Shown: piece by piece, positions 1-63,956 of the stretch | How positions within the stretch are numbered: the stretch's first letter is position 1 | Layout of the letters: each line of letters opens with the position of its first letter | Assembly (NCBI GenBank): GCA_964550035.1 | Contig: CAZJVU010000003.1 | Span: 65,383-129,382, forward strand | Direction: 5' to 3' | Length of the DNA stretch: 64,000 bases | DNA from: an uncultured Candidatus Saccharibacteria bacterium | Lineage (GTDB): Bacteria > Patescibacteriota > Saccharimonadia > Saccharimonadales > EFPC-124 | Made by a program: the position numbers and the translations under genes | Notes under the pieces: model-generated | Databases searched by the model: none | What the model was told of the DNA's origin: nothing | What the model saw: the letters and a program-made list of their open reading frames with translations, nothing else

Positions 1-725
1 GCGATATCTTTGGCGCAGATAACCCAATGGGTAAAACCATCAAGCTCGAGGACGACACATATACCGTCATCGGCGTCCTGAAAAGCAAAGAAGAAAGCGG
101 CTTCAACAACGCAAACCGTCAGATCTATGTCCCGGTCAGCAGCGCCCAAGCCACCTACAGTCTCACCAACTACAGCGCCATCTACGCCAAAGCGACGAAT
201 GACAGCGCTGTCGAATCGGCCAAGAACGCCATCAACGCCAAGCTCCTCAGCAACCACAGCAAGACCGACAAAACTGCCGACTTCAGTATCAGTACGCCGC
301 AAGACCTGCTCAACACCATCAAGCAGTCGACAGGCGTCTTCACGACATTGCTCGCCGGCATTGCCAGCATCAGCCTCGTCGTGGGCGGCATCGGCATCAT
401 GAACATCATGCTTGTGGCCGTCAGTGAACGCACGCGTGAGATTGGACTCCGCAAGGCGATTGGCGCGCGTACCCGCGACATACTGCAGCAGTTCGTGTTC
501 GAATCTGTCTTGCTCTGCCTGGCGGGCGGGCTGATCGGCATCGCCATCGGGGCACTGACCGCTGCAAATCTCAGCAAGGTTCTGACCGGTATCACGCCGG
601 TGGTCAGTATGGATTCTGTCCTTCTTGCTGTGGGTGTCTCGACGCTCGTCGGGCTCGTCTTTGGCATCTACCCAGCGGCCAAAGCTGCGCGGCTGAATCC
701 GATTGATGCGCTGCGTTACGAATAA
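1..725 (+). CDS. MacB/FtsX-type ABC transporter permease, C-terminal part (5' end outside window)
   Basis: Frame open from window edge; FtsX-domain 4-TM C-terminus (GIGIMNIMLVAVSERTREIGLRKAIGA...YPAAKAARLNPIDALRYE). Confidence 0.9.
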   Translation, partial: DIFGADNPMGKTIKLEDDTYTVIGVLKSKEESGFNNANRQIYVPVSSAQATYSLTNYSAIYAKATNDSAVESAKNAINAKLLSNHSKTDKTADFSISTPQDLLNTIKQSTGVFTTLLAGIASISLVVGGIGIMNIMLVAVSERTREIGLRKAIGARTRDILQQFVFESVLLCLAGGLIGIAIGALTAANLSKVLTGITPVVSMDSVLLAVGVSTLVGLVFGIYPAAKAARLNPIDALRYE

Positions 726-731
726 CAGGGT

Positions 732-985
732 GGCTGACCGACGCCGCTCATCCCCTTCTCGCCCTCGACTGTGTCGAAGCCCGGCGACGAAGGAACGGTA
801 GTTCCTGAGACCCGAGCAGGAGAGGGTGAGAATGGGGATGAAAAGGCGTCTGAGGATTCTGCGTGGACCGGCTTTTCACCCATGTCCCCATTCCCTCCTG
901 CTTGGGTCTCAGAGCTAACGCTCTTCGCCGCCAGGCTTCGATGACAGCCCCGGAAGAGGACATGGGTGAGCGCCGGCTGGCGTAG
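732..985 (-). repeat. Palindromic (long-hairpin) repeat element, copy A
   Basis: ~254 nt imperfect palindrome. Arm pairs include ctgagacccaagcaggaggg/ccctctcctgctcgggtctcag and gaatgggga/tccccattc. A second copy lies at 56366-56575 in inverse orientation. Confidence 0.8.
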
Positions 986-1019
986 AGTCACCAACTATAT
1001 AACTAAGGAGATCATTAAA

Positions 1020-1487
1020 ATGCCAATCCATGAATACCAGAAACAGATGTACAAAAAAATCGCCATCATCGCGGCGTTGATCATACTCCCCGTCGCCGGA
1101 TTCTTTGCCGGCATGCAATACCAGAAACAAACCAACCCCGAGAGCAATCAGCGCGCCGCGCGGTTCGGCGCCAACGGTCCGCACATGATGCGTAACCGCG
1201 CGATCGGTACCGTAAAGACAATCAACGACACCGCTATCACCGTCACCAGCCGTGTCGATAACAGCGACAAAACCTACACATTATCGTCCGGCACAACATA
1301 TAAAAACGGCACAGCCGACGCAAAAGCCAGCGACATCAAAACCGGCGACACAGTTATGCTCACGCTCGATGCGTCAGATACCACTAAGGTCACGACCGTC
1401 ACGCTCAACCCAACCAACATGTTCCGCGGCACCGACGACACCGGCCCTACTACTGATACCAGTGGTGGCGATGTGATGGTACAATAG
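1020..1487 (+). CDS. Membrane-anchored hypothetical protein (N-terminal TM, Thr/Asp-rich beta-type domain)
   Basis: ATG at 1020 preceded by AAGGAG; the longer ORF from 966 overlaps the repeat and has no RBS. Confidence 0.6.
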   Translation: MPIHEYQKQMYKKIAIIAALIILPVAGFFAGMQYQKQTNPESNQRAARFGANGPHMMRNRAIGTVKTINDTAITVTSRVDNSDKTYTLSSGTTYKNGTADAKASDIKTGDTVMLTLDASDTTKVTTVTLNPTNMFRGTDDTGPTTDTSGGDVMVQ

Positions 1488-2939: not shown

Positions 2940-3311
2940 TCACCAGTCGTACTGCGTCCCCCACGTCCAGCGCACCGGCCGGTACTGCGGACCATAGACT
3001 GGATAGTTTCGGTTCAGGAAGCGCTTGATCCGCGTCCCGTCCACGCCGATGACGCCCGAGGCTTTGCGCTGGGCGGTTGGCACGAACAGACAACGCTTGC
3101 CGTCGAATCGAACCTGCATCGGCAGCTCGGCCGCCTGCACTTGCCTGCCGAGCACTTCCGACCGGAAAAACTCCTGGATCGGAACGTCGGTCCAGTGATA
3201 GCCGTCCTTGTCTCGGCCCGCGTACTGCGAGACGGACACCACCCAGACACCTTCCCTCGTGTAGATGACACTGCCGGCGTAATCACCGACCGGCGGCATT
3301 CGTAATCTCAT
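2940..3311 (-). CDS. Hypothetical protein (GC-rich orphan)
   Basis: 123 aa; SD GAGGTGAGG upstream; hairpin ggccgag/ctcggcc downstream (2900-2925). Confidence 0.55.
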   Translation of the reverse strand: MRLRMPPVGDYAGSVIYTREGVWVVSVSQYAGRDKDGYHWTDVPIQEFFRSEVLGRQVQAAELPMQVRFDGKRCLFVPTAQRKASGVIGVDGTRIKRFLNRNYPVYGPQYRPVRWTWGTQYDW

Positions 3312-10173: not shown

Positions 10174-10210
10174 TGAGAGGGAGCGGGCTCACGAGGAGCC
10201 CGCTCCCTCT
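10174..10210 (-). terminator. GC-rich hairpin
   Basis: gagagggagcgggctc / gagcccgctccctctc, 16-bp stem immediately 3' of gene 10229-10669. Confidence 0.65.
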
Positions 10211-10228
10211 CCCTTCACCACGAGTAAG

Positions 10229-17741: not shown

Positions 17742-19274
17742 TTATGCGCCAGATTTGATTTCGACGTCGTCGCCATAATGCTTCTTGAGGCGGGCACGGA
17801 TGGAACCAGGATGTCGGCCAAATTCTGTGACCAGATCGTCGAGCGGCTTGCCATCGGTGAAGAGCGACTTGAGCTTATCATCGTCTTCGGTCGACCACGG
17901 CTTAAACGCGTTGGGGTGCGTCTCGCGCATCTTGGCGATCTTGTCGTGCCAGTTGGAGTCGCCTTTTTTCTTTTCTTCTTCGGGCTCGTCCTTGCGCTTT
18001 TTAGCCAGTTCGCGGAGTGGGGCAAACTTCTCGGCGTCTTTCTTGGCACGCGCCCTGAGGAGCTCATCGATCTCGAGCGCATCACGACTCACCTTGAGCG
18101 ACATGTTGTTGAGACCAAGCAGGCTGAGGCTATCCAAACGCTTCACGCGCGACAGCGCAACGTATCCCATGCCTTCCACAAATGCTTTGCGCAGATCAAT
18201 CCGCGCGGCGTCGAGTGTCATGCCCTGACTCTTGTGCACGGTGATCGCCCACGCAAGACGTAACGGAATTTGCGTGAGGCTCGCGCGCTTCTTGTCGCCA
18301 TCACGGAGCTCCCACGTCTCGAGGCCGATAGTCACTTCCTTGCCATTTCGCAGCTTCACAACTGGATAGCCCAGCAGCGGCTCGAACCCAACCACCACGC
18401 CGAGGCTGCCGTTTGCAAACTTCTTATCAGGGCTGTTGCGGACGCACATGACGAGCGCACCTGTTTTGAGCGTGAGCGTTTCGAGCGCCAAGCATGACCG
18501 CTTGAGCGTCTCGACATAATTCTGCGAGCCAGTCGTGTCCATAGTGTAGACATGCGTTTCACCGTCGATACCATTCAGGCGACTCTCGTTGATACTATCG
18601 ACATTCATATTGGTGACGTACAGCTCGGTCACGGCGTTGTTGCTGGGAAGTTCGGCGCCGACACGTGCAAGCAGCGACTCGGCATGGCGCCGGCGAATAT
18701 CACCGGCGCGAAGAGCGTTCAATATCTCGAGGAAGGCATCATCGTCCTGGCGATGCTGCTCGCTGAGGTAGCAAATACTCGGATCGAGCTCGGACCATGC
18801 AGCAGCGTTGACCACGAAACCGCCCTGCTTCGAATCATGACGATTCACTGGTGGCAGCTGGAAGAAATCGCCGCATAGTATGACCTGAATACCCCCAAAC
18901 GGCGCCTCGTTTTCGCGGACTTTCTTGGCAATCTCGTTCACCATGTCGAGGCGATAATCGTGGAGCATCGAAATCTCATCGATGATCAGCACGTTGGTCT
19001 TCTGAATTGTTTCGCGACGAGCTTTACTGAGGTGGTCGAAAAATTTGTTTGGCAGCTCGTTGTGAATCCCCATGCCGCTCCATGAATGAATCGTGCTGCC
19101 GTTAAGGTGCGTAGCAGCGAGCCCGGTTGTGGCGGTGACCGAGACGTGCTTGCCAGACTTTTTGACACGACGAATAAATTCATTGAGTGCATACGTCTTG
19201 CCCGAACCAGCCGGTCCGGTCAGTAGCACGCTCTCGCCGCTGAGCATTACCTCGAGTGCCAAACTTTGTTCCAT
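17742..19274 (-). CDS. PIF1/RecD-family ATP-dependent DNA helicase with Lys-rich, Myb-like C-terminal extension
   Basis: Walker A GPAGSGKTYAL, IIDEISM, ITVHKSQGMTLD; C-terminal WSTEDDDKL...GRHPGSIRARL. Confidence 0.88.
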   Translation of the reverse strand: MEQSLALEVMLSGESVLLTGPAGSGKTYALNEFIRRVKKSGKHVSVTATTGLAATHLNGSTIHSWSGMGIHNELPNKFFDHLSKARRETIQKTNVLIIDEISMLHDYRLDMVNEIAKKVRENEAPFGGIQVILCGDFFQLPPVNRHDSKQGGFVVNAAAWSELDPSICYLSEQHRQDDDAFLEILNALRAGDIRRRHAESLLARVGAELPSNNAVTELYVTNMNVDSINESRLNGIDGETHVYTMDTTGSQNYVETLKRSCLALETLTLKTGALVMCVRNSPDKKFANGSLGVVVGFEPLLGYPVVKLRNGKEVTIGLETWELRDGDKKRASLTQIPLRLAWAITVHKSQGMTLDAARIDLRKAFVEGMGYVALSRVKRLDSLSLLGLNNMSLKVSRDALEIDELLRARAKKDAEKFAPLRELAKKRKDEPEEEKKKGDSNWHDKIAKMRETHPNAFKPWSTEDDDKLKSLFTDGKPLDDLVTEFGRHPGSIRARLKKHYGDDVEIKSGA

Positions 19275-25128: not shown

Positions 25129-25734
25129 ATGGGAAAATTAATCGTCGCTAACATCGTTTCACTCGACGGCAACTACGAAGGCCCCGGCCACAACGTCATG
25201 ATGCTGCCGATGGACGGCGCGTTCGACGCGTTCAACCTCGAGCACATGAAGGCAGCTGAGGTCATCCTGCTCGGCGGGAACTCGTACAAATTCTTCGGCG
25301 GTTTCTGGCCAGCCATGGCAGACAACAATGAAACCTCTGAAAACAACCGAGAGTTTGCCCGCCGTTACAACGAGATCCAGAAAGTTGTCGTTTCTAACTC
25401 AGTCACGTCAGCGGACTTCCCTAAGCCATGGGCCGACAGCACAAAGATCATCGCCGAAAACACATACGATGAAGTACAGAAGCTCAAAGATGAAACCAAA
25501 GGCGACATTGTTATGTTCGCAAGCCGCATGCTCTGGAATGACCTGCTTGCTCACGGGCTCATCGATGAGATCCACCTGGTTGTAGGCAACGTTGTCCTGG
25601 GCAAAGAAGGTACCGCGCTCTTCACCGAGCAAATCACCTACGACGACCAGAAGACTAAGCTCCACCTTCTCGACACTAAAAAATGTGACGACTCAAACAA
25701 CTACGTCGTCCACTACGCAGTAAAGAAAGCATAG
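25129..25734 (+). CDS. Dihydrofolate reductase-family protein (RibD C-terminal domain)
   Basis: IVSLDGNYEGPG...ILLGGNSYKFF...MFASRMLWNDLL pattern. Confidence 0.8.
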   Translation: MGKLIVANIVSLDGNYEGPGHNVMMLPMDGAFDAFNLEHMKAAEVILLGGNSYKFFGGFWPAMADNNETSENNREFARRYNEIQKVVVSNSVTSADFPKPWADSTKIIAENTYDEVQKLKDETKGDIVMFASRMLWNDLLAHGLIDEIHLVVGNVVLGKEGTALFTEQITYDDQKTKLHLLDTKKCDDSNNYVVHYAVKKA

Positions 25735-27533: not shown

Positions 27534-27608
27534 TGGCGAGTGGCCAAATGGTAAGGCACTAGTTTCTGGCACTAGGGATTGAAGGTTCGAGTCCTTCCTC
27601 GCCAGCCA
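27534..27608 (+). tRNA. tRNA-Gln (anticodon CTG)
   Basis: Manual cloverleaf: acceptor tggcgag/ctcgcca, D arm gcc/ggc, anticodon stem ctagt/actag with loop ttCTGgc, T arm gaagg-ttcgagt-ccttc, encoded CCA; TATAAT at ~27515. Confidence 0.9.
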
Positions 27609-27715
27609 TGAAATTATTCAGATCAAAAGAGTTCCAAATTCTGGAGCACTTTTGCTCCCCACCACACCCAGCGGCAGGAGCAAATAATCGCAAAATATGG
27701 TATTATAACCATACT

Positions 27716-28960
27716 ATGCGAATACGAACTATTATTCTTAGCCTACTAACTATCACGACACTTGTAGTGGGCACTATCGCACCAAGCGTATCTGCCCAAA
27801 CCGATACATGGGGAGATTATTCTCAGATGTTCAAACAGAGCGCCGGACAATTCTTTAGCGGTGCCGACTACGGTGGCCAATGGGGCTGGACGCCTCAAAG
27901 CAGTACTACCAGCGACATCTCATGGTCGCCAAATTATGCCGAGCGTTTTATCAAGTCTGACAATTGGGTACTGCTTGATGGCTACAACAATGGGCCGGGC
28001 ACCGCAATCACGCAAGTTCAACGAGTAACTTCTGAGCAAATGGGCGACGCCAACTGTAATGGTATGACCGACCTGCCTTCTGCAAATGGCATGCAGCATT
28101 ACGCGCAGTGGAACATTCCGGCCTCGGGTTACTGCCTGGATGCAACCGGTACAATTACCTCGCCTACCAACGGTACGACCGTGAACTTCCGCCACCGTCA
28201 GCAGTGGAGCCCGCCTGCGGCATGTTCAAACGCGACCTTTACAGGCAAGACATGCATCAGTCAGCACGAACAGTGGTGGGACGACAATGGCCACCCATAC
28301 GGTTTGCAGCTAGATCGTTCAGGTTCACTCGCGAAGGGTCTTGGCATGGCCTTTACGATCCAGCAGACATACCCAAGTGCCTGGAATGCTGAGGGCAAGT
28401 TCTATAATCTGTCACTGGACGGAACGACAGCCTGGAGTCCCAGCACGGGGGCTCACCAAATCTATGGCGAAATTGCTAAAAAATGGAAAGCAATGGGAGC
28501 ATTTAATGGCCCCCAAGGCTACCCTACTTCCGATGAAAGCAGTACGCCTAATGGCTCAGCTCGATACAACAACATGCAGAACGGTGGCATTTACTGGTCA
28601 ACCTCTACCGGAGCGCAGGCAGTTTATGGCGCCATCTACCAGAAGTGGGGCCAATACGGTTATGAAACAGGTATTTTAAAACTCCCGACCACAAGTGAAG
28701 CCTCGACTCCAGACGGCGTCGGCCGCTACAATCATTTTCAAGGCGAGAATGGCTCTATATACTGGACCCCTTCTACCGGGGCACACGTGATACAGGGGAT
28801 GATCAAGTCGCGTTGGGCTGCACTCGGCTGGGAGCGTTCCTACCTGGGTTACCCCACGAGCGATGAGTTTGCAATTTCTGGCGGCCGCCAATCAAACTTC
28901 CAGAACGGCTATATCACATACAATGCTGCGACAGGAAAAGTCACTGACTACCACAAATAG
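27716..28960 (+). CDS. Secreted protein with C-terminal LGFP repeats
   Basis: Signal peptide (MRIRTIILSLL...SVSAQ); 3-4 tandem LGFP-type repeats (G.LGYPTSDE...G.YW/ITY...TG); the extension to 27608 overlaps the tRNA. Confidence 0.8.
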   Translation: MRIRTIILSLLTITTLVVGTIAPSVSAQTDTWGDYSQMFKQSAGQFFSGADYGGQWGWTPQSSTTSDISWSPNYAERFIKSDNWVLLDGYNNGPGTAITQVQRVTSEQMGDANCNGMTDLPSANGMQHYAQWNIPASGYCLDATGTITSPTNGTTVNFRHRQQWSPPAACSNATFTGKTCISQHEQWWDDNGHPYGLQLDRSGSLAKGLGMAFTIQQTYPSAWNAEGKFYNLSLDGTTAWSPSTGAHQIYGEIAKKWKAMGAFNGPQGYPTSDESSTPNGSARYNNMQNGGIYWSTSTGAQAVYGAIYQKWGQYGYETGILKLPTTSEASTPDGVGRYNHFQGENGSIYWTPSTGAHVIQGMIKSRWAALGWERSYLGYPTSDEFAISGGRQSNFQNGYITYNAATGKVTDYHK

Positions 28961-34721: not shown

Positions 34722-34896
34722 TACACCATCCTCACGTAGCGGAAACAGGAGCGTCACTTATTATACCGCCCATCACAACAAGGCAGCTATCATAAGTCTA
34801 TGCGCAACGGCGCGCTTGCATGCGTCACCTCCTATAACAGTACATGCAAATAGGGGCCCGAAATTCGAGCCCCTATTTGCATTATCGTTTTACTTT

Positions 34897-35499
34897 TTAA
34901 ATTTCGATCGTACCGATCTTGATGTCACCATTGCGTGCATAGCGATTCATGGTTACGCCACTTGGCGTTACGGTGCTTTGGGTTAGCTTGAATGCGACAG
35001 GCAATGTGCCTTCACCGAACAAACGCTTGCCCGAACCCAGCGTTACTGGAATGATCTTGAGCCATACTTCGTCGACCAAGTCATTCTGAAGAAGCATCTG
35101 CACAAGCTTGCTACTACCCCAAACCTGCAGGTCGGCGCCTTCTGTCTGCTTGAGCGCTTTAATTTGCTCCAGAACGTCATCGCCGGTAATCACCTTCGTA
35201 TTCTTCCAAGTGAACTCTTCTGGCTTGCTCGAAACAACGTATTTCATTCCATCGTTAATGCCCGGCCAAAATTCAGGGTGCTGAGGCCAGTAGCCGGCAA
35301 AGATCTCGTATGTCTTGTAACCCAAGAGGTAGTCCGATGGAGCGAGCTCTTTTGCGAACTCTTCGTTAAAGACGTCATCACCGAATGATCCAGCCCAACC
35401 GCCGTATTTGAAGCCACCCGAAGTGTCTTCTTTCGGACCGCCAGGGCCTTGCATGACACCGTCGAGTGAGACTGTTGTAGTTACGATTATTTTTCTCAT
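34897..35499 (-). CDS. Dihydrofolate reductase-family protein (RibD C-terminal domain), paralog 2
   Basis: MRKIIVTTTVSLDGVMQGPGGP...; 200 aa; terminator gcaaataggggc/gcccctatttgc downstream. Confidence 0.82.
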   Translation of the reverse strand: MRKIIVTTTVSLDGVMQGPGGPKEDTSGGFKYGGWAGSFGDDVFNEEFAKELAPSDYLLGYKTYEIFAGYWPQHPEFWPGINDGMKYVVSSKPEEFTWKNTKVITGDDVLEQIKALKQTEGADLQVWGSSKLVQMLLQNDLVDEVWLKIIPVTLGSGKRLFGEGTLPVAFKLTQSTVTPSGVTMNRYARNGDIKIGTIEI

Positions 35500-40390: not shown

Positions 40391-40427
40391 CACGAGCGTG
40401 GGCGGGACTCACCCGCCCACGCTCGTG
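40391..40427 (+). terminator. GC-rich hairpin
   Basis: cacgagcgtgggcggg / cccgcccacgctcgtg, 16-bp perfect stem. Confidence 0.7.
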
Positions 40428-53978: not shown

Positions 53979-54746
53979 ATGCGTGCAATTTGGAATGGAT
54001 CAATCAGCTTCGGACTCGTCAGTATTCCCGTCAGACTTTACAGTGGTAGCAATTCGCGGGCCGGTATCGACCTCGATATGCTTCACAAGGAAGACCACTC
54101 GCCGATTCGCTTTGCGCGGATTTGCCGCAAGGACGGCGAGGAAGTGCCTTGGGACGACATCGTGAAGGGGTACGAATACCGCGACGGCGACTACATCGTG
54201 CTGAGCCAGAAGGAACTCGACGAGCTCGATGCCAAGAAATCCCAGACCATCGATATCCTCCAATTCGTCAATGAAGACGACATCGACATCCGCTACTTCG
54301 AAAAACCATACTACCTCGAGTCCGACAAGGGCGGTGACAAAGCTTACGCGCTCCTGCGTGCAGCATTGAAGAAATCCGGCAAGCTAGCCCTCGCCCGATT
54401 TGCCATGCACGAGCACGCGCACATTGCGGTTATTAAACCCGTTGGCCGCGCGCTGGTGCTGAACCAAATGCGTTATCCTTCTGACCTTCGTGAGCCGGGC
54501 GAGCTGCACTTGCCAACCGAGAAAGAACTCTCTGAGAAGGAAATCGACATGGCGCTCAAACTCGTCAAGCAAGAGACCAAACCATTCATTCCCGAAGACC
54601 TGCGCGACACCTACACCGAAGAGCTCGAGGAACTCATCAAGGACAAAGCTAAAGGCAAGAAGCTCCCTAAAGGTCATGAATCCAAGGGCGCTTCCGGCAA
54701 CGCCAAAGACCTGATGAGCGCGCTCAAAGCCAGTTTAAAGGAGTAG
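53979..54746 (+). CDS. ku: Ku protein (NHEJ DNA end-binding)
   Basis: MRAIWNGSISFGLVSIPVRLYS...; Lys-rich C-terminal tail. Confidence 0.93.
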   Translation: MRAIWNGSISFGLVSIPVRLYSGSNSRAGIDLDMLHKEDHSPIRFARICRKDGEEVPWDDIVKGYEYRDGDYIVLSQKELDELDAKKSQTIDILQFVNEDDIDIRYFEKPYYLESDKGGDKAYALLRAALKKSGKLALARFAMHEHAHIAVIKPVGRALVLNQMRYPSDLREPGELHLPTEKELSEKEIDMALKLVKQETKPFIPEDLRDTYTEELEELIKDKAKGKKLPKGHESKGASGNAKDLMSALKASLKE

Positions 54747-54752
54747 CTGCCT

Positions 54753-56774
54753 ATGGGCTTGCGGGAGTATTTCCGGAAACGCAGTTTTAGCGAGACGCCT
54801 GAGCCAGAGGGCAACAGGAAGCCGGCGCGAGGCCGCGCTACTCCTCGGGCACAAGACGGTCGTCGGAGCAACACGACCTCGCGCCGCCATACGTTAAAAT
54901 TCGTTGTTCAGGAGCACCACGCCACCGCGCTGCACTACGATTTCCGCCTCGAGATGGACGGCGTTCTCAAAAGCTGGGCCGCGCCGAAGGGTCCGAGCAT
55001 GAATCCGCACGATCACCACCTGGCCATCCAGACCGAAGATCACCCTTACGAGTATCGCAACTTCGAAGGCGTCATCCCCGAAGGGAACTACGGCGCGGGT
55101 AACGTCATCATCTGGGATGAAGGCACGTACGAACCACGTGACCCGCAGGGCGACGAGAAGTCACTCTTGCGCGACCTGAAGAAAGGTCACGTCACATTTG
55201 TAATGCATGGCAAGAAACTCCAGGGCGAGTTTGCGCTCATCCGTATGCCGAATGCCAAGGAAGACGACGCCTGGCTTCTCATAAAGAAAGGCGACGAATA
55301 CGCCAACAGCACCGACGTCACCAAAGAAGACGAGTCTGTTCGCTCGCACCGCCATGTCGACGACCTCGGTGCGCACGGTAAGTTGCCTGATCTCAGCGAG
55401 TTTCCCAAAGTCCGCCAGCCCTGGACGGTCACGCCCATGCTTTGCACGCTCGTGGATGAGCCGTTTGACCGCGACGGGTGGATTTTTGAGATCAAATGGG
55501 ATGGCTACCGCGCGATCGGCACCAAGCATGGCGCCGACACGCAGCTTTACTCGCGCAATCAACTCGACTTCCGCGAGAGGTTTCCGCCCGTCGTCGAGGC
55601 GCTGCGCGAGATCAAGCACGACGTGATCCTCGATGGCGAAGTTGTTGTCGTGGATGATGAAGGCCGCGCACATTTTGAATGGCTACAAGGCTGGAATAAG
55701 GTCCCGCACGGCACACTCCAATATCACATCTTTGATATCCTCTGGTGTGACGGTCACGATGTGCGCAACTTGCCGCTCGTACGTCGCAAGGCTTTGCTCA
55801 GTGCCATCCTCCCGAAGAGCTCGGTGCTGCGCTACAGCGACCACGTCACTGGCAAAGGGCTCAAACTCTTCCACGAAATGCAGCGCCGCGGGCTGGAGGG
55901 CATGGTCGCAAAGCGCGCTGACAGCACATATCGTGAGAATGTCCGCGGTGGCGACTGGCTGAAAGTAAAGACACACATGCGCCAAGAGGTTGTGATCGGC
56001 GGCTACACTGAGCCACGTGGTGGGCGTAAATATCTCGGCTCGCTGCTCGTGGGCACATACGAGAAAGGTGAGCTGATATACCGTGGTCACTCCGGCGGCG
56101 GCATTGGCGATGAGCAACGCAAACAATTACAGGCAAAGCTCGCGCGGCTGGAGCGCAAGACGTCGCCGTTCAGCACCGAGCCAAAGCCGAACGCGCCGGT
56201 TCACTGGGTGAAGCCTGAGCTGGTATGTGAGATGGAATTTAGTGAATGGACGAGTGAGGGATCTATGAGGCATCCAGAGTTTAAGGGTTTGCGACCGGAT
56301 AAGAAGCCGGAAGATGTACACCGCGAGAAGTCAAAGTCCGTCAGCCACGCTGAGCATAGTCAGACCCACGCCAGCCAGCGCTCGTCTATGTCCTCTTCCC
56401 GACGGTATCGAAGCCTGGCGGCGAGGAGCGATAGCTCCGAGACCCAAGCCGGAGGGAACGGGGACATAGACGAAAAGCTGGTCCACGCAGAATCCTCAGA
56501 CGCCTCTTCGCCCCATTCTCCACCCCTCCTAAGACAGTCGGGATCGAAGAAGGGGGCGAGCGGCGTCAGCAGGCCGAATCGAAAAGTAAGGGACAAAAAG
56601 AAGGGGCGGACCGACCAACAGGACCCCAGTCCTTTAGTCTCCCGTTCGAACCAACTCACCTCGACAAAGTCTTCTTCCCCAAACACAAATACACCAAAGG
56701 CGACCTCTTCGAATACTACACCGCCGCCGCCGAGTACATCCTCCCCTACCTCAAGGACCGCCCACTCTCCATGA
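54753..56774 (+). CDS. ligD: LigD, phosphoesterase plus ATP-dependent ligase domains. The 3' third reads through a repeat insertion and out of frame into the polymerase region
   Basis: PE: FVVQEHHATALHYDFRLE..LKSWAAPKGPS. Ligase: EIKWDGYRA (KxDG), ...HPEFKGLRPDK. After ~56360 the sequence is low-complexity. Confidence 0.85.
   Translation: MGLREYFRKRSFSETPEPEGNRKPARGRATPRAQDGRRSNTTSRRHTLKFVVQEHHATALHYDFRLEMDGVLKSWAAPKGPSMNPHDHHLAIQTEDHPYEYRNFEGVIPEGNYGAGNVIIWDEGTYEPRDPQGDEKSLLRDLKKGHVTFVMHGKKLQGEFALIRMPNAKEDDAWLLIKKGDEYANSTDVTKEDESVRSHRHVDDLGAHGKLPDLSEFPKVRQPWTVTPMLCTLVDEPFDRDGWIFEIKWDGYRAIGTKHGADTQLYSRNQLDFRERFPPVVEALREIKHDVILDGEVVVVDDEGRAHFEWLQGWNKVPHGTLQYHIFDILWCDGHDVRNLPLVRRKALLSAILPKSSVLRYSDHVTGKGLKLFHEMQRRGLEGMVAKRADSTYRENVRGGDWLKVKTHMRQEVVIGGYTEPRGGRKYLGSLLVGTYEKGELIYRGHSGGGIGDEQRKQLQAKLARLERKTSPFSTEPKPNAPVHWVKPELVCEMEFSEWTSEGSMRHPEFKGLRPDKKPEDVHREKSKSVSHAEHSQTHASQRSSMSSSRRYRSLAARSDSSETQAGGNGDIDEKLVHAESSDASSPHSPPLLRQSGSKKGASGVSRPNRKVRDKKKGRTDQQDPSPLVSRSNQLTSTKSSSPNTNTPKATSSNTTPPPPSTSSPTSRTAHSP
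56366..56575 (+). repeat. Palindromic repeat element, copy B (210 nt, in frame within ligD)
   Basis: Aligns to the reverse complement of 732-985 with a ~45-nt deletion in one arm; 70 codons with no stop in the ligD frame. Confidence 0.8.
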
Positions 56775-57520
56775 ACCGCATGCCCAACGGCATCAAAGGC
56801 CCAAGCTTCTTCCAGAAAAACAACGAGCACCTGCCCGATTGGGTCCCGAGCGCTGACATCTGGAGCGACAGCAACAACGCCGACCTGCATTGGATTGTCG
56901 GCGACAAGCTCGACACGCTCCTCTACCTCGTACAGCTTGGTTCGATCGAAATCAACCCCTGGAACTCACGCGTCGGTCAACTCGACAGACCCGACTGGAT
57001 CGTCATCGACCTTGACCCCGAAGGCGTCACATTCAACGACGTCATCAAGGTGGCCAAAACAGTCCACGAAGTCACCAGCGAATGGGACATCCCAGCCTAC
57101 CCCAAGACTTCCGGCAAGACCGGCATTCACATCTTCATCCCCATGGGCGCGAAATACACCTACGAACAAGCCAAGAACCTCGCCCACCTCATAGCCCTTG
57201 AGGTCAACAAGCGCCAGCCCAAGCTTACCAGCGTCGAGCGTAACCCAGAGAAGCGCAAACACCGTATCTATCTCGACTTCCTCCAAAACCGCGAGGGTCA
57301 AACCCTCGCCGCGCCTTACTCTGTCCGCCCAACCGAGGAAGCCAGCGTCTCGATGCCGCTCCACTGGCGCGAAGTGAAGCTCGGCCTCAGCCCCATGGAC
57401 TTCACCATCAAGAACGCCCTTGCCCGCCTCAAGCGCACCGGCGACTTATGGGAGCCAGTCATGGGTAAGGGCATCGACCTCGCAAAAGTCCTGAAAAAAA
57501 TTGAATCTTCCAGCAAGTAA
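56435..57520 (+). CDS. ligD: LigD polymerase/primase domain reading frame (-1 relative to upstream ligD ORF)
   Basis: Frame open from 56435. It translates ...FEPTHLDKVFFPKHKYTKGDLFEYY...RPLSMNRMPNGIKGPSFFQKN...IVIDLDP... No ATG/GTG/TTG before ATG 56771. Confidence 0.75.
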   Translation, partial: LRDPSRRERGHRRKAGPRRILRRLFAPFSTPPKTVGIEEGGERRQQAESKSKGQKEGADRPTGPQSFSLPFEPTHLDKVFFPKHKYTKGDLFEYYTAAAEYILPYLKDRPLSMNRMPNGIKGPSFFQKNNEHLPDWVPSADIWSDSNNADLHWIVGDKLDTLLYLVQLGSIEINPWNSRVGQLDRPDWIVIDLDPEGVTFNDVIKVAKTVHEVTSEWDIPAYPKTSGKTGIHIFIPMGAKYTYEQAKNLAHLIALEVNKRQPKLTSVERNPEKRKHRIYLDFLQNREGQTLAAPYSVRPTEEASVSMPLHWREVKLGLSPMDFTIKNALARLKRTGDLWEPVMGKGIDLAKVLKKIESSSK

Positions 57521-57549: not shown

Positions 57550-57960
57550 ATGACACGGGCGCGTATTGCGATCTTAGGGGTAGTAGCTCTTCTTTGTATT
57601 GGAGGAATAGTGACGGGCGTCTTTGCGCTAGCCAATAACTCGCTCGGCTCGCCCAAAGAGCACACGCATACGGCCTGCAGTGGCGACCATAACGAGTACA
57701 CCGTTACCATCCAAAACGCCAAGCTCAGCATCGACAATATCCATGCCAAACGCTGCGACAAGCTCACCATCATAAATGGCGACGATACATTACGGCTCAT
57801 GGCCTTTGGCGTCCACGACCATCACCAAGCATACGACGGCACCGAGGAAAAGACCCTCAAGCGCGGCGATCAGCTGAGCGTCACACTCGACCAAGCCGGC
57901 ACATTTACCTTCCACGACCACTTGCACGATGAAGTAAAAGGCACATTCACGGTGGAGTAA
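57550..57960 (+). CDS. Membrane-anchored cupredoxin-like protein
   Basis: N-terminal TM; C-terminal GTFTFHDHLHDEVKGTFTV beta-sandwich signature; ATG directly follows TACAGTATATAT (leaderless?). Confidence 0.6.
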   Translation: MTRARIAILGVVALLCIGGIVTGVFALANNSLGSPKEHTHTACSGDHNEYTVTIQNAKLSIDNIHAKRCDKLTIINGDDTLRLMAFGVHDHHQAYDGTEEKTLKRGDQLSVTLDQAGTFTFHDHLHDEVKGTFTVE

Positions 57961-57964
57961 GGCT

Positions 57965-58852
57965 ATGAAGTTTACCTTTCCCAAACAGCTCAAAGTCCTT
58001 CTCATCACTGGCGGCATCCTCGTCACGCTTGCGGCGGTTGCGGCAGCGATATGGTTTATCAGCAACCACAACATTGCCGTGCTCAACCCGATGGGAACGA
58101 TTGCTGATCAGCAGCGACAACTACTAACTACCTCCGTATTACTGATGGCGCTGGTGGTGATTCCCGTCTTTGTGCTCACCTTCGGCATCGCCTGGCGATA
58201 TCGCGCCGGCAACAAGAAAGCCACGTACTCGCCTGAGCTTACTGGCAATAAGTGGGCTGAGGCGATCTGGTGGCTGATTCCGTTTGCAATCATCGTCGTT
58301 CTCGCTGGCATGGTTATTGTGAGTAGTCACACGCTCGACCCGTTCAAGAAACTTACGAGCAATAAACCGCCGCTCAAGGTACAAGTCATCGCGCTGGAAT
58401 GGAAATGGCTGTTCCTGTACCCCGAGCAGCACGTCGCCGCGGTCAACTACCTGCCGATTCCGACTGACCGACCAATTGATTTCCAGCTGACGAGCGATGC
58501 GCCGATGAACTCATTCTGGATTCCACAGCTCGGCGGTCAAGTCTACGCCATGTCGGGCATGAGCACACAGCTGCACCTCATGGCCAGCAAGCCGGGCGAC
58601 TACCGCGGCTCGAGCGCGAACATTAGCGGTGAAGGATTCGCCGGTATGACATTCACGACACACGCCACACCGCAATCCGACTTCGACAAGTGGGTTGCCG
58701 AAACGCAAAAGTCAAACAAGACAATGACGCTGGACACCTACAACGACCTCGCCAAGCAGTCCAAAAATGTCCCACCAGCTAGCTACACGTTCCCCGCCGC
58801 ATACGACAAACTCTACGATACCGTCATAATGAAATACATGTCACACCAGTAG
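57965..58852 (+). CDS. cyoA: Cytochrome bo3-type quinol oxidase subunit II
   Basis: Two TM helices plus a cupredoxin domain lacking CuA Cys ligands (quinol-oxidase type). Confidence 0.9.
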
Positions 58853-58857
58853 GAGGA

Positions 58858-60801
58858 ATGATGTTCGGACGACTTACTCTCGATGCAATCCCTAAAGAAC
58901 CGGTCACCCTCGGTGGTGTTGCAACGATGCTTTTGGGCGGCTTGGCCGTTGTGGCGCTCATCACGTACTTCAAAAAGTGGCGCTGGTTGTGGCAGAACTG
59001 GCTCACCTCGCTGGACCCAAAGAAAATTGGCGTGATGTATCTGGTCGTCGCGGGTATTATGCTGCTGCGTGGTCTTGGCGATGCACTGCTCATCCGTGTG
59101 CAGCAAGCGCTCGATGCCAATGCGCCGCTCAGCACCGACACGTTCCAGCAGATCTTTTCGGCGCACGGCACGATGATGATTTTCTTTGTGGCCATGGGCG
59201 TGATCTTTGGCATGATGAACCTCCTGATACCACTGATGATTGGCTCGCGCGATGTGGCGTTTCCGTTCCTGAACGCGGTGAGTTTCTGGCTGTTTGCCGC
59301 CGGCATGGTGCTGGTGAATGTGTCGTTGATGGTCGGTGAATTCCAGGCCGCTGGTTGGCTGGCTTATCCGCCGCTGAGCGAGCTCCAGTATAGCCCGGGT
59401 GTCGGCGTGGACTACTGGCTTTGGACGCTCCAGATTGCTGGCGCAGGAAGTTTGCTGAGTGGCATTAACTTTATGGTGACGATCATCAAAATGCGCGCGC
59501 CGGGTATGACGCTGATGAAGATGCCGCTTTTTGTATGGGCGTGCCTCGGCAGCTTGAGCCTTATCGTCGCTGCGTTCCCGATTCTCACCGCGACGCTGGC
59601 TATGTTGTCGCTGGACCGATTACTGGGCATGCATTTCTTTACGAGTAACGCCGGCGGCAACCCGATGATGTATATCAACCTCATCTGGGCATGGGGGCAT
59701 CCAGAAGTCTACATCCTCGTGCTACCGGCATTCGGCGTTTTCTCGGAAGTCGTAGCGACGTTCTCGCGTAAACCGCTCTTTGGCTACACCAGTATGGTGT
59801 GGGCGATTGTGGGTATTACCCTCCTGTCGTTTGTCGTATGGCTGCATCACTTCTTTACCATGGGCGCGGGTGCAGATGTGAATGCGTTCTTTGGCATCAT
59901 GACGATGATCATTGCTGTGCCGACGGGCGTGAAGGTCTTTAACTGGCTGTTCACGATGTACCGCGGCCGCGTCAGGTTCACCACACCGATGCTGTGGTTT
60001 ATGGGATTTGTTACGACATTTACGATCGGTGGCGCGACGGGCGTGTTGATGTCCGTGCCGGCGGTTGATTTCCAGATTCACAACAGTCTGTTCCTGGTTG
60101 CACACTTCCACAATATGATCATCGGTGGCGTTATCTTTGGCGCCATGGCTGGGCTGACGTATTGGTTCCCCAAGTTTACCGGTTTTCGCCTCAATGAATT
60201 CCTGGGCAAATGCGCGTTCTGGTGCTGGCTGGGCGGATTCCTTTTGGCCTTCGTACCGCTCTACATCCTCGGTCTGATGGGCGCGACTCGCCGCCTTGAC
60301 CATTACGACCCGTCGCTTGGCTGGCAATGGTTGTTCATAGTGGCTGGGTTCGGCGTGTTACTGATCTTGCTCGGCGTTGGTTTCCAGCTGCTGCAGATTG
60401 GCTACAGCATTTGGGACCACAAGAAGCACCCGAAGCCGGCAGAATCCGACCCATGGGATGGTCGCACGCTCGAATGGGCCGCATCTTCGCCGCCAAAGGA
60501 ATACAACTTTGCGGTTATTCCAACCGTCACCGAACGAGACGCCTTTTGGCATACAAAACAACGCGGTGTTGAGGTCCCCAAACACTACGAAGACATCGAA
60601 ATCCCCAAGAACACGCCACTCGGCATGTTCATTGCCGCCGGCGCGTTCCTGATTGGGTTCGGACTGGTGTGGCATATGTGGTGGTTGGCGATAGCTGGCT
60701 TTGTCGCAATTGTCGTGTTCATGCTTGTACGTTTTAGCGACGACAACACCGAACGGGTCATTACTGCCCGTGAAGTCGAGAAGATGGAGGCTGCGCTATG
60801 A
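58858..60801 (+). CDS. cyoB: Quinol oxidase subunit I (heme-copper oxidase)
   Basis: [25 protein letters not shown] motifs; 647 aa. Confidence 0.95.
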
Positions 60802-61379
60802 ATAACGACGCAGTAGCAACGACTCGTTCCGACAAAACAATCTTTGGGTTCTGGGTCTACATCATGACCGACTGCGTATTGTTTGCGACGCTTTTTGCGA
60901 CGTACGCCGTGCTACGTAATTCGACTGCGGGCGGACCGAGCTCGCACGATCTCTTTAATATGCCGTATGTACTTGTCGAGACGCTACTTCTTCTGACCAG
61001 CAGCTTTACGTGCGGGCTCGCACTGCTCGCGGCACGCACGCAGAAACTCAAACAGGTTAGCGTCTGGCTGAGCATCACGTTCCTGCTCGGGCTGTCGTTC
61101 ATCACGATGGAGCTGACCGAGTTCGCGCACCTTGCTGCCGAGGGCAACAGCTGGAATGCCAGCGCGTTTCTGTCGGCGTTCTTTACGCTTGTGGGTACGC
61201 ACGGGCTGCACATCAGCATCGGGCTGCTGTGGATGCTCGTGATGGGCGCATTCCTCCTGCGCCGCGGGCTGAATGAACATTCTACGCGGCGCCTCGAGTT
61301 GTTTAGTATTTTCTGGCATTTCCTGGATATTGTATGGGTATTTATCTTTACCATTGTGTATCTGATGGGGGTCGCATAA
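60798..61379 (+). CDS. cyoC: Quinol oxidase subunit III
   Basis: 5-TM subunit III pattern; 4-nt overlap with cyoB. Confidence 0.9.
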
Positions 61380-61723
61380 TGAAACGGTCACTTGTTCGCT
61401 ACATCAGCGGGTTTGTATTGTCTCTGCTGTTTACAGCTGCGGCGTACCTGGCTGTTACGCAGAAAGTCTGGGGCGCCGGAGCGCTCGTGGGCGTGATCAT
61501 CGGGCTTGCGATTGCGCAGGTGCTCGTGCAGCTGTATTTCTTCTTGCACCTGGGGCAAGAGACGAAGCCGCGATGGAAGCTTATGGTCTTGATCTCGACA
61601 ATCGGCATCCTTGGTATCCTCGTGTTTGGATCGCTCTGGATTATGCAGAACCTCAACTACAATATGATGTCGCCGCAAGAAATGAACGTCTACATGATCG
61701 ACCAGAACAGCCGAGGCTTTTAG
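61379..61723 (+). CDS. cyoD: Quinol oxidase subunit IV
   Basis: 114 aa, 3 TM helices; TAATG overlap with cyoC. Confidence 0.8.
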   Translation: MKRSLVRYISGFVLSLLFTAAAYLAVTQKVWGAGALVGVIIGLAIAQVLVQLYFFLHLGQETKPRWKLMVLISTIGILGILVFGSLWIMQNLNYNMMSPQEMNVYMIDQNSRGF

Positions 61724-61726
61724 CGA

Positions 61727-62590
61727 GTGTCCAAACTTAACGCGTATTTTCAGCTCACTAAGCCAGGTGTACTTTTCGGCAATGCACTGTCGGCTTTGGC
61801 GGGGTTTTTGTTTGCGAGTGGCGGTGCGGTCGATGTATGGCGCTTCGTATGGTTAAGCATCGGCACGACGCTGCTCATTGCATCAGCCTGCGTACTCAAT
61901 AACTACCTCGACCAAGACATCGACGCCAAAATGTCGCGCACCAAGAAACGTGCCGCCTGGATGCGAACGGTTGGCGGGCGAGGCGCTGTTAGTTTCTCGA
62001 TCGCTTTGGGCGTCGTCGGGCTTGGTGTGCTCATCGCCTACACCAACCCCTGGGTCGTGCTCATCGAGCTCATCGGCTGGTTTGACTACGTGGTGCTCTA
62101 CGGCATGTGGTCAAAGCGCACGTCCGTCCATGGCACCCTCGTCGGTAGCATCTCTGGCGCGGCGCCAATCCTGGCAGGCTACGTCGGTGCGCGTGGCTCT
62201 ATCGACATAGGGGCGGTGCTGATCTTCCTCGTCCTTTTCGTGTGGCAGATGCCAGAGTTCTATTCCATCTCGATCTATCGCCGCCGTGAATACGCTGCCG
62301 CGGGTATACCCGTTATTTCGGTCGTGCGTGGCGTCAAACGGACGATCACCGAAATTTTTGTGTACACTATACTCTTCACGATCTTTGCGCTCGCGCTCGG
62401 CCTAACTGGCTATGCGAGTACAACGTACACCGTTATTATGGCGCTCGTGTGCGCGTTGTGGCTGCGGGTTGGACTCCAAGGCTTCGCAGCTGAGGATGCA
62501 GACACCTGGGCTCGCAAGATGTTCAAATTCGCCATCAATATTCTCCTGCTTTTTTGCGTCCTCGTCGCCATCGACCCATGGCTCCCGTAG
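61727..62590 (+). CDS. cyoE: Protoheme IX farnesyltransferase (heme O synthase)
   Basis: UbiA-family NNYLDQDIDAKMSRT motif; GTG start. Confidence 0.9.
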   Translation: MSKLNAYFQLTKPGVLFGNALSALAGFLFASGGAVDVWRFVWLSIGTTLLIASACVLNNYLDQDIDAKMSRTKKRAAWMRTVGGRGAVSFSIALGVVGLGVLIAYTNPWVVLIELIGWFDYVVLYGMWSKRTSVHGTLVGSISGAAPILAGYVGARGSIDIGAVLIFLVLFVWQMPEFYSISIYRRREYAAAGIPVISVVRGVKRTITEIFVYTILFTIFALALGLTGYASTTYTVIMALVCALWLRVGLQGFAAEDADTWARKMFKFAINILLLFCVLVAIDPWLP

Positions 62591-62591
62591 T

Positions 62592-62620
62592 TTGACGTGA
62601 TGAAATAACAATGCTATAAA
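62592..62620 (+). promoter_or_regulatory. Sigma70-type promoter for 62666-63058
   Basis: TTGACG-17 nt-TATAAA. Confidence 0.55.
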
Positions 62621-62665
62621 TATACTTTCAACCATCCGACTACGTAGTCCTGGAGAGGCAGCACC

Positions 62666-63058
62666 ATGCGGCGGCGACTCATAGCCCTGCTCGTACTCGC
62701 GCTCACGCTCCTCGCTAGCTGCGGGCGTGAGCCCTACGACCCGTCCAGCCCGATCGAACAGCAGCCGGCCAAGGCTGAGCAAGTGGTTCAGTACCAGGAG
62801 CACGACCTTTTCTGCATCGAGCAAGCCCTTGCTCACCAGGCGAGTTCGTACACCTGTGACTTCGCCAGCTTTTACAACGAGCCGCCCAAGCACGGCTCGA
62901 AGCTCCCCACGGCGAAGGTCACGCTGGCGACCATACCGTACCGAGGCCACACGCTGTACTGCTTCGCCTACGACGGCGGACACAACAGCACCGGCTTCAC
63001 CTGTGACTTCGAGCGGTTCTATCGCGAAAACAAAGGGCCATTCCCGGACCACGGCTGA
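62666..63058 (+). CDS. Lipoprotein with duplicated [YF]TCDF..FY.E motif (GC-rich orphan)
   Basis: Lipobox LLASC|G; YTCDFASFYNE and FTCDFERFYRE; GGAGAGG SD. Confidence 0.6.
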   Translation: MRRRLIALLVLALTLLASCGREPYDPSSPIEQQPAKAEQVVQYQEHDLFCIEQALAHQASSYTCDFASFYNEPPKHGSKLPTAKVTLATIPYRGHTLYCFAYDGGHNSTGFTCDFERFYRENKGPFPDHG

Positions 63059-63062
63059 ACAA

Positions 63063-63111
63063 CGCGCCCGATGAGCAAGCGCCCTCCATGTGCGGGTGCT
63101 CATCCGGGCGC
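63063..63111 (+). terminator. GC-rich hairpin
   Basis: gcgcccgatgagca / tgctcatccgggcgc. Confidence 0.6.
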
Positions 63112-63168
63112 TCACACATGAACTTATTGCTATTTTGAAAAGAAACCTCGACTCGGTATACTACGCTT

Positions 63169-63423
63169 ATGGTACTCATCCTTCATATTCTTATCGCACT
63201 CTCAAGTATTATCGTCAGCGGACTTGCCTATGCCCGCCCAAGCGCCGCACGACTCAATGCGTCGTACGGACTTGTCGCCGCGACCCTCGCAACCGGTACA
63301 TTCCTCGTCGTTTCTGCGCCATCGCATCTGGCGAGTGCTTGCGTTTCTGGTCTTGTATACCTCGCTACTGTGAGCGCTGCCATCATAGCGGCGCGCGCCA
63401 AACTTGCCCACGAGCAGATCTAG
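63169..63423 (+). CDS. Small membrane protein
   Basis: 84 aa, 3 TM helices; stop 2 nt before the next ATG. Confidence 0.5.
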   Translation: MVLILHILIALSSIIVSGLAYARPSAARLNASYGLVAATLATGTFLVVSAPSHLASACVSGLVYLATVSAAIIAARAKLAHEQI

Positions 63424-63425
63424 CC

Positions 63426-63956
63426 ATGAAGTTTGTCGCATTTCTCCGCGGCATCAATGTCGGCGGCAAAAGCATGATCAGCATGAGTGATCTCAAGTCG
63501 TGCTTCGAAACACTTGGTTTTACCGATGTCCGCACCTACATCAATAGCGGCAACGTCATCTTCACGACCGACGGCGACGAGCGCGCATTCGAGCTCAGCA
63601 TCGAAGGTGCATTGCACAAGCAGTTCGGTATGCCCATCCGCGCGATGGTCCGCTCGCAGGCAGATATGCAAAAGCTCCTCGCCAGCATCCCGAAATCTTG
63701 GCTCACCGCCACCGACCACAAGTACGAATTTATCTTCCTGACCCACCAAGCCGACAAGCCTGACATCATCGAACAGATCGTTACCCGGCCGGAAATCGAA
63801 GAGCTCCGCTACGTTCCGGGTGCGCTCGTATGGTTCTTCAACAGCGCCAGCAAGACAAAAAGCCGCGTCATGAAGATCAACCAAATGCCCATATACCAGC
63901 AGATGTCCGTGCGTACATCGGGCACTGTCCACAAACTCGTCGAGCTAATGCAGTGA
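63426..63956 (+). CDS. DUF1697-family protein
   Basis: MKFVAFLRGINVGGKSMISMSDLK...YINSGNVIF signature; the longer ORF from 63090 is a frame artefact. Confidence 0.8.
   Translation: MKFVAFLRGINVGGKSMISMSDLKSCFETLGFTDVRTYINSGNVIFTTDGDERAFELSIEGALHKQFGMPIRAMVRSQADMQKLLASIPKSWLTATDHKYEFIFLTHQADKPDIIEQIVTRPEIEELRYVPGALVWFFNSASKTKSRVMKINQMPIYQQMSVRTSGTVHKLVELMQ

Follow-up and report, generated by a model that had tools for sequence, protein, structure and literature searches.

Two copies of a palindromic repeat, here designated E1, occur in a 64,000-nt stretch (the window) of contig CAZJVU010000003.1 from an uncultured Candidatus Saccharibacteria bacterium (assembly GCA_964550035.1). Copy A fills the spacer between the gene for a MacB-type permease and a gene for a DUF5666-like protein, and copy B lies antisense within the gene for LigD, in the linker between its ligase and polymerase domains. 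Comparison with relatives shows both copies to be extra DNA at insertion-tolerant sites, namely, the macB spacer and the flexible LigD linker. [quoted passage not shown] The best-supported likening is one by manner of working and not by membership in any named family: the architecture of E1 resembles that of REPINs and bacterial interspersed mosaic elements (BIMEs), and its copy in a coding region resembles an RPE.

A prior model-generated annotation of the sequence (the original prediction) had matched 732-985 with 56366-56575 in opposite orientation, and this match is borne out by a repeat search of the window, blastn, and gapped alignment. The repeat search recovers two pairs of inverted arms, 824-942/56407-56525 (119 nt, 86%) and 952-983/56368-56399 (32 nt, 88%), and blastn aligns copy A to copy B at 85.5% over 166 nt (E = 8e-47). 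Both of the shared sequence blocks quoted at the time are present, one of them being the 26-nt block AGGCGTCTGAGGATTCTGCGTGGACC, which is identical in A (844-869, plus strand) and B (56480-56505, minus strand) and which yields a 21-mer found exactly twice in the window, against an expectation of 0. The limits given earlier were nearly right and are somewhat wider here, with the likeness confined to ~732-998 in A and ~56352-56579 in B. Since it stops at these element edges, the copies do not belong to a larger duplicated block, the circumstance that had been named as speaking against the prediction. E1 measures 226 to 267 nt and has no conserved open reading frame (ORF) inside it.

Hairpin units of E1

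The two copies fold differently. Whichever strand is folded, copy A forms a single long hairpin (-137.9 and -142.5 kcal/mol; z = -6.9 and -7.8), and copy B folds more weakly into two separate domains (-118.7 kcal/mol; z = -4.6). The one long hairpin originally described therefore applies to copy A, on both strands, and not to copy B; what is conserved is a unit of ~90 to 130 nt. The building block is a short hairpin unit (S) of ~90 nt, with the base helix GACGCC/GGCGTC and the tip GACTGTCTTAGGAG, and the long unit (L) of ~130 nt has the form of the S unit with ~42 more nt at the tip.

Relatives, which were sampled only around the macB and LigD loci (433 kb of Saccharimonadales loci plus the 19 kb of L107 and L108), contain the S unit by itself. 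At the macB junction of L086 (Logan run SRR29757261), only the left ~90 nt of E1 are present, in the short form seen in B (GACTGTCTTAGGAG) and with the end GGCGTCTGAAGAT; the LigD linker of L105 holds the same solo piece with an identical GGCGTCTGAAGAT end. This S piece alone is a complete hairpin. A covariance model (R1) built on five S-type units regains them at 82 to 111 bits and also matches the opposite-strand half of A (22.5 bits, E = 7e-4) and of B (26.1 bits, E = 7e-5), so that the second half of E1 is an inverted, diverged unit with ~42 extra tip nucleotides (that is, an L unit). Gapped alignment of A and B confirms that part of one arm is absent in B (42 to 43 nt, corresponding to ~775-817 in the left arm of A, against the ~45 nt claimed), but the short form has the same boundaries in other genomes, and the ~43 nt "missing" from B therefore reflect the regular S form instead of a deletion peculiar to B. 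In copy A, the long hairpin arises secondarily, from the pairing of its two L units with one another.

The units are arranged as follows.

Window copy A, macB spacer: L + inverted L
Window copy B, LigD linker: S + inverted L
L086, macB spacer: S alone
L105, LigD linker: S alone
L104, LigD linker: S + inverted L (the contig begins within the L unit)
L107, LigD linker: L + S in tandem
L108, LigD linker: single degenerate unit

Within the window, the elements and their parts are as follows.

732-998, plus strand: E1 copy A, L + inverted L, filling the macB/DUF5666 spacer (alignment to B, long-hairpin fold, short spacer in relatives)
728-859, plus strand: copy A unit 1, forward L unit (covariance model match, 81.7 bits; fold, -64.8 kcal/mol; pair counts)
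740-745/845-850: P1 helix of copy A unit 1, GACGCC/GGCGTC
~775-817: extra ~42-nt tip of copy A unit 1, with a local hairpin at 792-805
844-869, plus strand: central 26-nt block, connecting the 3' tail of unit 1 with the tail of the inverted unit 2
858-989, minus strand: copy A unit 2, inverted L unit (covariance model match, 22.5 bits, E = 7e-4; helix 876-887/958-969)
56352-56579, minus strand: E1 copy B, S + inverted L, antisense in the LigD ligase-polymerase linker
56490-56579, minus strand: copy B S unit (covariance model match, 98.8 bits; P1 GACGCC/GGCGTC; tip GACTGTCTTAGGAG at 56526-56539)
56362-56491, plus strand: copy B inverted L unit (covariance model match, 26.1 bits, E = 7e-5; helix 56382-56393/56462-56473)

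Two of the relatives listed, L104 and L107, are Logan contigs from sister runs that are identical from the S unit onward; upstream of this shared unit, L104 has an inverted L unit and L107 a direct one (L104 1-75 versus L107 3500-3612), the two sequences being merely ~79% alike. This difference in orientation could be a strain polymorphism, an inversion, or a chimeric assembly path. L104 also has 6 extra nt within the 26-nt central block.

Substitutions among the copies preserve pairing. In the alignment of five S units, 97.2% of cells are paired and 10 of 29 pairs are changed on both sides (here, as in the counts that follow, the unit structures were derived from the same sequences and then tested on them, and the copies share a common descent). 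Of 500 shuffles, not a single one attains the observed value on any of the five measures applied, and sliding the 3' partners by 1 to 3 columns leaves 45 to 57% pairing. For the alignment of four L units, RNAalifold returns 38 pairs, 18 of which are compensatory, and the inverted L helix differs between A (TCACCCATGTCC/GGACATGGGTGA, 876-887/958-969) and B (TCGTCTATGTCC/GGACATAGACGA) by three double substitutions in 12 bp.

The units are also asymmetric with respect to strand: the forward strand folds better than its complement by 3 to 11 kcal/mol in all eight units (for example, -43.9 versus -33.4 kcal/mol for the S unit of copy B), and among single-sided substitutions that leave a pair intact in the long-hairpin model, 7 create G-U on the forward strand and 2 on the other. 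The two units of an inverted dimer accordingly prefer opposite DNA strands, so that no single transcript is optimal for both, which makes a simple RNA function somewhat less likely.

The macB spacer and the LigD linker

Copy A fills, as originally described, the gap between the MacB stop codon (723-725) and the start of the next gene (1020), with both genes on the plus strand.

27-725, plus strand: 3' part of the MacB/FtsX permease gene, upstream of A (Pfam FtsX, MacB_PCD)
722-726, plus strand: ATAAC, left copy of a candidate 5-bp target-site duplication, overlapping the macB stop TAA (723-725)
999-1003, plus strand: ATAAC, right copy of the candidate target-site duplication
1020-1487, plus strand: DUF5666-like gene downstream of A (homologues P0001 to P0040, some with PF18914), with the Shine-Dalgarno sequence AAGGAG at 1006-1011

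The spacer between these genes is 294 nt long in the window versus 10 to 19 nt in 14 metagenome loci, in which it typically reads TAA-AGGAG-N7-ATG; it is similarly short in one further locus (L102) and measures 12 nt in the contig of the closest homologue (P0005, 78%). Orthologous spacers of 10 to 19 nt identify copy A as an insertion. Taking out 727-1003 restores TAA-CTA-AGGAG, which is like the empty spacers of relatives, and the letters flanking this single copy weakly suggest that the ATAAC pair is a target-site duplication. The original prediction had seen no such duplications, which is accurate with respect to copy B and overlooks this candidate at copy A. Logan contigs of three sequencing runs begin within E1 repeats, those of L081 and L082 both at window position 882, just 3' of the central block of A, and that of L104 in its L unit; such breaks fit repeat- or strain-induced breaks in the assembly graph and prove nothing.

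Copy B had been placed inside a coding region, which is correct, the part concerned being the interdomain linker of LigD.

53979-54746: Ku gene, start of the Ku-LigD locus
54753-56330, plus strand: LigD phosphoesterase and ligase domains (Pfam LigD_N, DNA_ligase_A_M, DNA_ligase_A_C), frame open through B
56511-56514, plus strand: CCCC run inside the S unit, site of the LigD frame break (CCCCC in L104 and L107)
56591-56638, minus strand: half copy of E2, a second palindromic family described below, adjoining copy B (nhmmer E2 profile, E = 2.6e-7, profile positions 2-49; pattern match at 56603-56627)
56642-57520, plus strand: LigD primase-polymerase domain (Pfam LigD_Prim-Pol, 1-254/254), -1 frame relative to the ligase

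LigD relatives from species-representative genomes come almost entirely from metagenome-assembled genomes of Candidatus Saccharibacteria/Saccharimonadales, the best having 80 to 84% protein identity. In 12 Saccharimonadales relatives, the LigD ligase and polymerase are encoded in one frame and joined by a linker of 20 to 55 amino acids (aa) without E1, which marks copy B as an insertion. Other relatives translate the element: two full-length LigDs, P0162 (891 aa, L107) and P0161 (939 aa, L108), have E1 units in frame in their linker DNA, a partial LigD (P0044, on L105) has the solo S unit in frame, and the full-length P0163 (845 aa) has a likeness to the E1-linker LigDs at the protein level only. 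Linker peptides derived from E1 occur only in the LigDs nearest to that of the window (polymerase identity of ~82% or more).

In the window itself, the LigD frame is broken at copy B, a feature that the original prediction missed. The ligase frame runs through B to a stop at 56772-56774; in the sequence ATGA, this stop overlaps the earliest ATG in the polymerase frame (56771). This start lies 26 residues into the polymerase domain, no earlier start exists in the polymerase frame, and the source annotation of that frame consists only of a 249-aa ORF (P0045). Adding one C at 56511-56514 yields a continuous LigD of 922 aa, comprising phosphoesterase, ligase, E1-encoded linker, and polymerase. The shorter C run leaves its partner base unpaired in the S-unit hairpin and is thus the derived state; in the window, it is either a real mutation or an assembly error. 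The motif CAAAAAG (56594-56600; GAC AAA AAG in the ligase frame) falls within the stretch in which both LigD frames are open. We speculate that a -1 slip on it would join ligase and polymerase and yield a ligase-only product plus full-length LigD; the motif is part of E2 and is translated in relatives with no shift.

E1 is one of several palindromic families at these sites. E2 is ~86 nt long, with the arms GGGGTCCTGTCAGTCGGTCCGCCCC ... GCCCCGCCGACTGCCACCCC, and it occurs in the macB spacers of L083 (9877-9983), L084, L087 (22-133), and L095 (599-701) and in the LigD linkers of L001 (11553-11657), L002 (11678-11783), and L108 (3244-3351); the reading frame in which it is translated differs between L001 and L002. 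The third family, E3, is present in the LigD linkers of L106 (~570-700) and L108 (~3005-3130), also as part of the open LigD frame of relatives, with perfect arms of 16 to 20 nt (ACTGAGTCTCACGACG/CGTCGTGAGACTCAGT in L106 and CAAGCTGCGAGTTCCCGTGA/TCACGGGAACTCGCAGCTTG in L108), and its first ~12 nt (CCACGCTGAG) appear to survive upstream of copy B, at window positions ~56340-56352. E1 is not a diverged E2, as the E1 unit model and the E2 profile never cross-detect, and no E2 remnants that would mark a nested insertion were found beside copy A.

The presence of E2 and E3 in other lineages at the sites of E1 indicates that these sites tolerate such DNA. The co-location of the three families possibly reflects a target preference (including insertion into earlier elements), survival at a few permissive sites, or the sampling of two neighborhoods. 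More distant LigD homologues (P0056, P0063, and P0065) have other, unrelated-looking long inserts in the linker, and the linker peptide of P0056 reads nearly alike in both directions (GPAALGRVTP...SPRVNALPRAAGPG), an indication that LigD linkers across the clade contain further palindromic DNA.

Nature and origin of E1

The label RPE/MITE-like, given to the repeat in the original prediction, remains apt insofar as E1 is a non-coding palindromic repeat with no transposase nearby, is missing at the same sites in most relatives, and is in frame in the LigD gene of some of them. It requires amendment in that E1 is a dimer of hairpin units, which brings it closer to REP doublets of the REPIN/BIME type than to a simple MITE, and is only putatively mobile.

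REPINs and BIMEs of Proteobacteria are mobilized by REP-associated tyrosine transposases (RAYTs) (PMC3116915, PMC3337134), and long vertical persistence has been argued for REPINs (bioRxiv 10.1101/2021.07.10.451892). Like E1, they consist of a small imperfect-palindrome unit that stands alone or as an inverted pair folding into a longer hairpin, contain no ORF, occur as old, vertically inherited copies, and fold asymmetrically with respect to strand, as expected of a single-stranded substrate; the inverted two-unit arrangement is found both in A (728-859/858-989) and in B (56490-56579, minus strand/56362-56491, plus strand). They differ from E1 in sequence and in the size of the unit (~20 to 40 nt for REP versus 90 to 130 nt), E1 units have no conserved GTAG-type head at their 5' ends, one E1 copy is intragenic, the 64-kb window has no RAYT gene, and REPINs number tens to hundreds whereas E1 has two copies in 64 kb and two loci overall.

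RPEs (reviewed in PMC10969869; Rickettsia genome papers, PMC1166351 and PMC1458961) are, like E1, palindromes of 100 to 250 bp that lie in frame within protein genes at positions compatible with the protein fold (for E1, an interdomain linker), in small reduced genomes and with no transposase seen. The in-frame translation typical of RPEs is found for E1 in P0162/L107, P0044/L105, and P0161/L108, the frame of the window being off by one base. The likeness is one of behavior only: RPEs belong to another phylum, are unrelated in sequence, and occupy dozens of host genes versus the single LigD, and E1 differs from them in its modular units.

Bacterial MITEs such as Correia/CREE and ERIC also have long and short variants (PMC10969869). 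In common with E1, they are small, palindromic, and non-autonomous, lie between cotranscribed genes without a transposase ORF, vary in length by an internal segment of ~40 to 50 nt, and can be nested or clustered with other elements. E1, however, has no clear terminal inverted repeats distinct from its palindrome and only one copy with a tentative duplication, has no matching insertion sequence known, and, in the window and the related loci searched, is very low in copy number, lacking the many dispersed copies of MITEs. Palindrome-associated derivatives of IS200/IS605 and other substrates of HUH single-strand endonucleases (PMC6006769) offer a further comparison, in that such an element would rely on strand-specific subterminal hairpins, not on terminal inverted repeats, and would insert without duplication; as a difference, no TnpA/TnpB is encoded near E1, and the three copies compared have no conserved left target of 4 to 5 nt (GGGT, ATTC, and AAAC). 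Literature searches turned up no account of palindromic repeats in Saccharibacteria or other candidate-phyla-radiation bacteria.

If E1 is an inserted repeat of this kind, it would have been placed at both sites by a trans-acting or recombinational mechanism, its copies would be old and mostly vertically inherited, and its hairpins would be kept by selection on the single-stranded form or by self-templated correction of the palindrome. S units are ~86 to 88% identical throughout, whether compared between loci or between genomes (hand count on the alignment), and the divergence of the macB 3' end between the window and L086 roughly equals that of the S units (hand count). Same-genome copies being no closer than cross-genome copies, homogenization is not ongoing. 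In agreement with the original statement that no transposase is nearby, no Pfam domain of a transposase, integrase, or reverse transcriptase occurs in any of the ~70 ORFs of the window. In an Rfam search of the window, only tRNA-Gln reaches the gathering score, and E1 gives merely subthreshold matches to generic microRNA hairpins. The open minus-strand frame of copy A returned no candidates from a set of 5.8 billion proteins, and the peptide encoded by copy B in the LigD frame had one match among 1.84 billion representative proteins, with no individually significant stretch.

Several observations weigh against an inserted, mobile-type repeat. Across the window and the 433 kb plus 19 kb of related loci, the E1 unit model has matches at just two sites, the LigD linker and the macB spacer. 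Divergence between copies (~12 to 14%) looks comparable to that of flanking genes (hand count), and there is no sign of recent transposition, nor of within-genome homogenization. Exact matches to the 21-nt core are absent from collections of genome and metagenome contigs (which the 6 extra nt in the L104 core partly explain), the gapped S-unit pattern is absent from a collection of viral contigs, and copy A has no match in plasmid and phage collections. Terminal inverted repeats are weak (GG.TGAC..ACGCC..GCTCA, with gaps) and form the outer part of the palindrome, no clear target-site duplication accompanies copy B or the L086 and L105 copies, and no parent insertion sequence or transposase is known for E1. 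Finally, the heavy compensatory change and the better-folding strand of each unit could point to a selected function instead of selfish or neutral DNA.

These same structural features would be expected if E1 units were functional structured RNAs, kept by selection on their RNA fold and acting in cis on the macB/DUF5666 transcript or as a small or antisense RNA, transcribed independently, opposite the LigD linker. The strong covariation in both S and L units, the excess of G-U-giving changes on the unit-forward strand in the long-hairpin model (7 versus 2), the 3- to 11-kcal/mol advantage of that strand in all eight units, and its coincidence with the operon sense strand at the macB site all favor such a role. 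Nevertheless, we regard it as distinctly unlikely. E1 belongs to no Rfam family, neither copy has a sigma-70-like promoter or intrinsic terminator within or beside it, and most relatives have no E1 in the macB spacer (10 to 19 nt or another element), so E1 is not a conserved regulator of macB/DUF5666. In addition, the units of a dimer favor opposite DNA strands and cannot both be served by one transcript, and the favored strand of the S unit is antisense in LigD. Moreover, palindromes can self-correct by intrastrand templating, a repair process that can mimic compensatory change without selection.

It is also conceivable, although unlikely, that E1 is not transposable at all and that its palindromes were born locally (for example, by template switching in the LigD linker), were copied ectopically to the second locus on one or a few occasions, through illegitimate recombination or capture during end joining, and then underwent gene conversion. 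This would suit the occurrence of E1 at just two loci, the same two in several lineages; the presence of the unrelated E2 at the same two loci in the same relative orientation; the position of copy B, which adjoins half an E2 and what appears to be the start of an E3; the likeness of CCGGCTGGCG, at the right end of the L unit, to the native LigD linker in L015, L107, and L108; and the differing L-unit orientation in L104 and L107, as well as the failure to find a transposase and the lack of a duplication at copy B. It fits poorly with the absence of homology between the loci outside the elements that could drive conversion, with same-genome copies being no closer than those of different genomes (~86 to 88%), with the 5-bp direct repeat at copy A, removal of which restores the ancestral spacer, and with solo units and dimers occurring at both loci with identical internal boundaries.

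A DNA-level site would be a third kind of explanation, in which the inverted pair 55 kb apart serves as inversion sites or each hairpin is bound or cleaved by a hairpin-recognizing protein. The opposite orientation of the copies, the conserved structure with one better-folding strand (as in substrates of single-strand-specific HUH/tyrosine enzymes), and the possibility that strains differ in L-unit orientation are compatible with it, but no recombinase or HUH enzyme gene lies in the 64-kb window and many close relatives have no E1 at one or both loci, making it very improbable. A further long shot is that the units are selected single-strand structures, either substrates of an unrecognized HUH/RAYT-like enzyme of Saccharibacteria or antisense/cis RNAs of the Ku-LigD end-joining locus, that have long been kept at just two loci; as a related possibility, the frame break in LigD might be bypassed by -1 slippage on CAAAAAG.

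Four other identities were considered for E1 and rejected. The CUGAGGA in the central block recalls the core of a hammerhead ribozyme, but no fitting GAAA or stem arrangement accompanies it and there is no Rfam match. A template/variable repeat pair of a diversity-generating retroelement is contradicted by A/B differences that are not adenine specific, by the lack of a reverse transcriptase, and by the copies being inverted and 55 kb apart. An intron in LigD is contradicted by the structured strand being antisense to LigD and by the translation of the element in relatives. A small protein gene (tip AGGAG, with ATG 9 nt on, encoding MG.KRRLRIL...) has against it the lack of a conserved stop and a pattern of substitutions among A, B, and L104 that is unlike that of coding sequence.

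Implications and other features of the window

Genomes of candidate-phyla-radiation bacteria, Saccharibacteria among them, are very small and densely packed. The unrelated palindromic families E1, E2, and E3 pile up at the few places that tolerate additional DNA, an operon spacer and the LigD linker, where they can be carried for long as a translated linker while paired substitutions preserve the DNA hairpins. Such repeats may also cost their host a gene, as a one-base change within the repeat, if not an assembly error, splits the only LigD of the window. Automated annotation will render this LigD either as two genes or as one with a junk tail, and LigD linker length within the clade should not be counted as a functional difference.

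The remainder of the window has several features of its own. Directly after LigD (57550-63956) follow genes for a cupredoxin-domain protein, cytochrome oxidase subunits I, II, and III, and a UbiA-family prenyltransferase, and a PIF1-type helicase is encoded at 17742-19274; with these oxidase subunits, UbiA, and PIF1, the gene content is richer than expected for a small-genome group. Two RibD_C paralogues ~10 kb apart (25129-25734, plus strand, and 34897-35499, minus strand) match each other in inverted orientation over 60 nt at their 5' ends (72%). tRNA-Gln(CTG) at 27534-27608 is immediately followed by the gene for a 450-aa LGFP-repeat protein (27608-28960), with no integrase beside the tRNA. 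Short perfect or near-perfect palindromes with arms of 16 to 19 nt and loops of 1 to 5 nt lie at or near ORF ends (34844-34882, 40391-40427, and 10175-10211); they look like ordinary terminator-type hairpins unrelated to E1.

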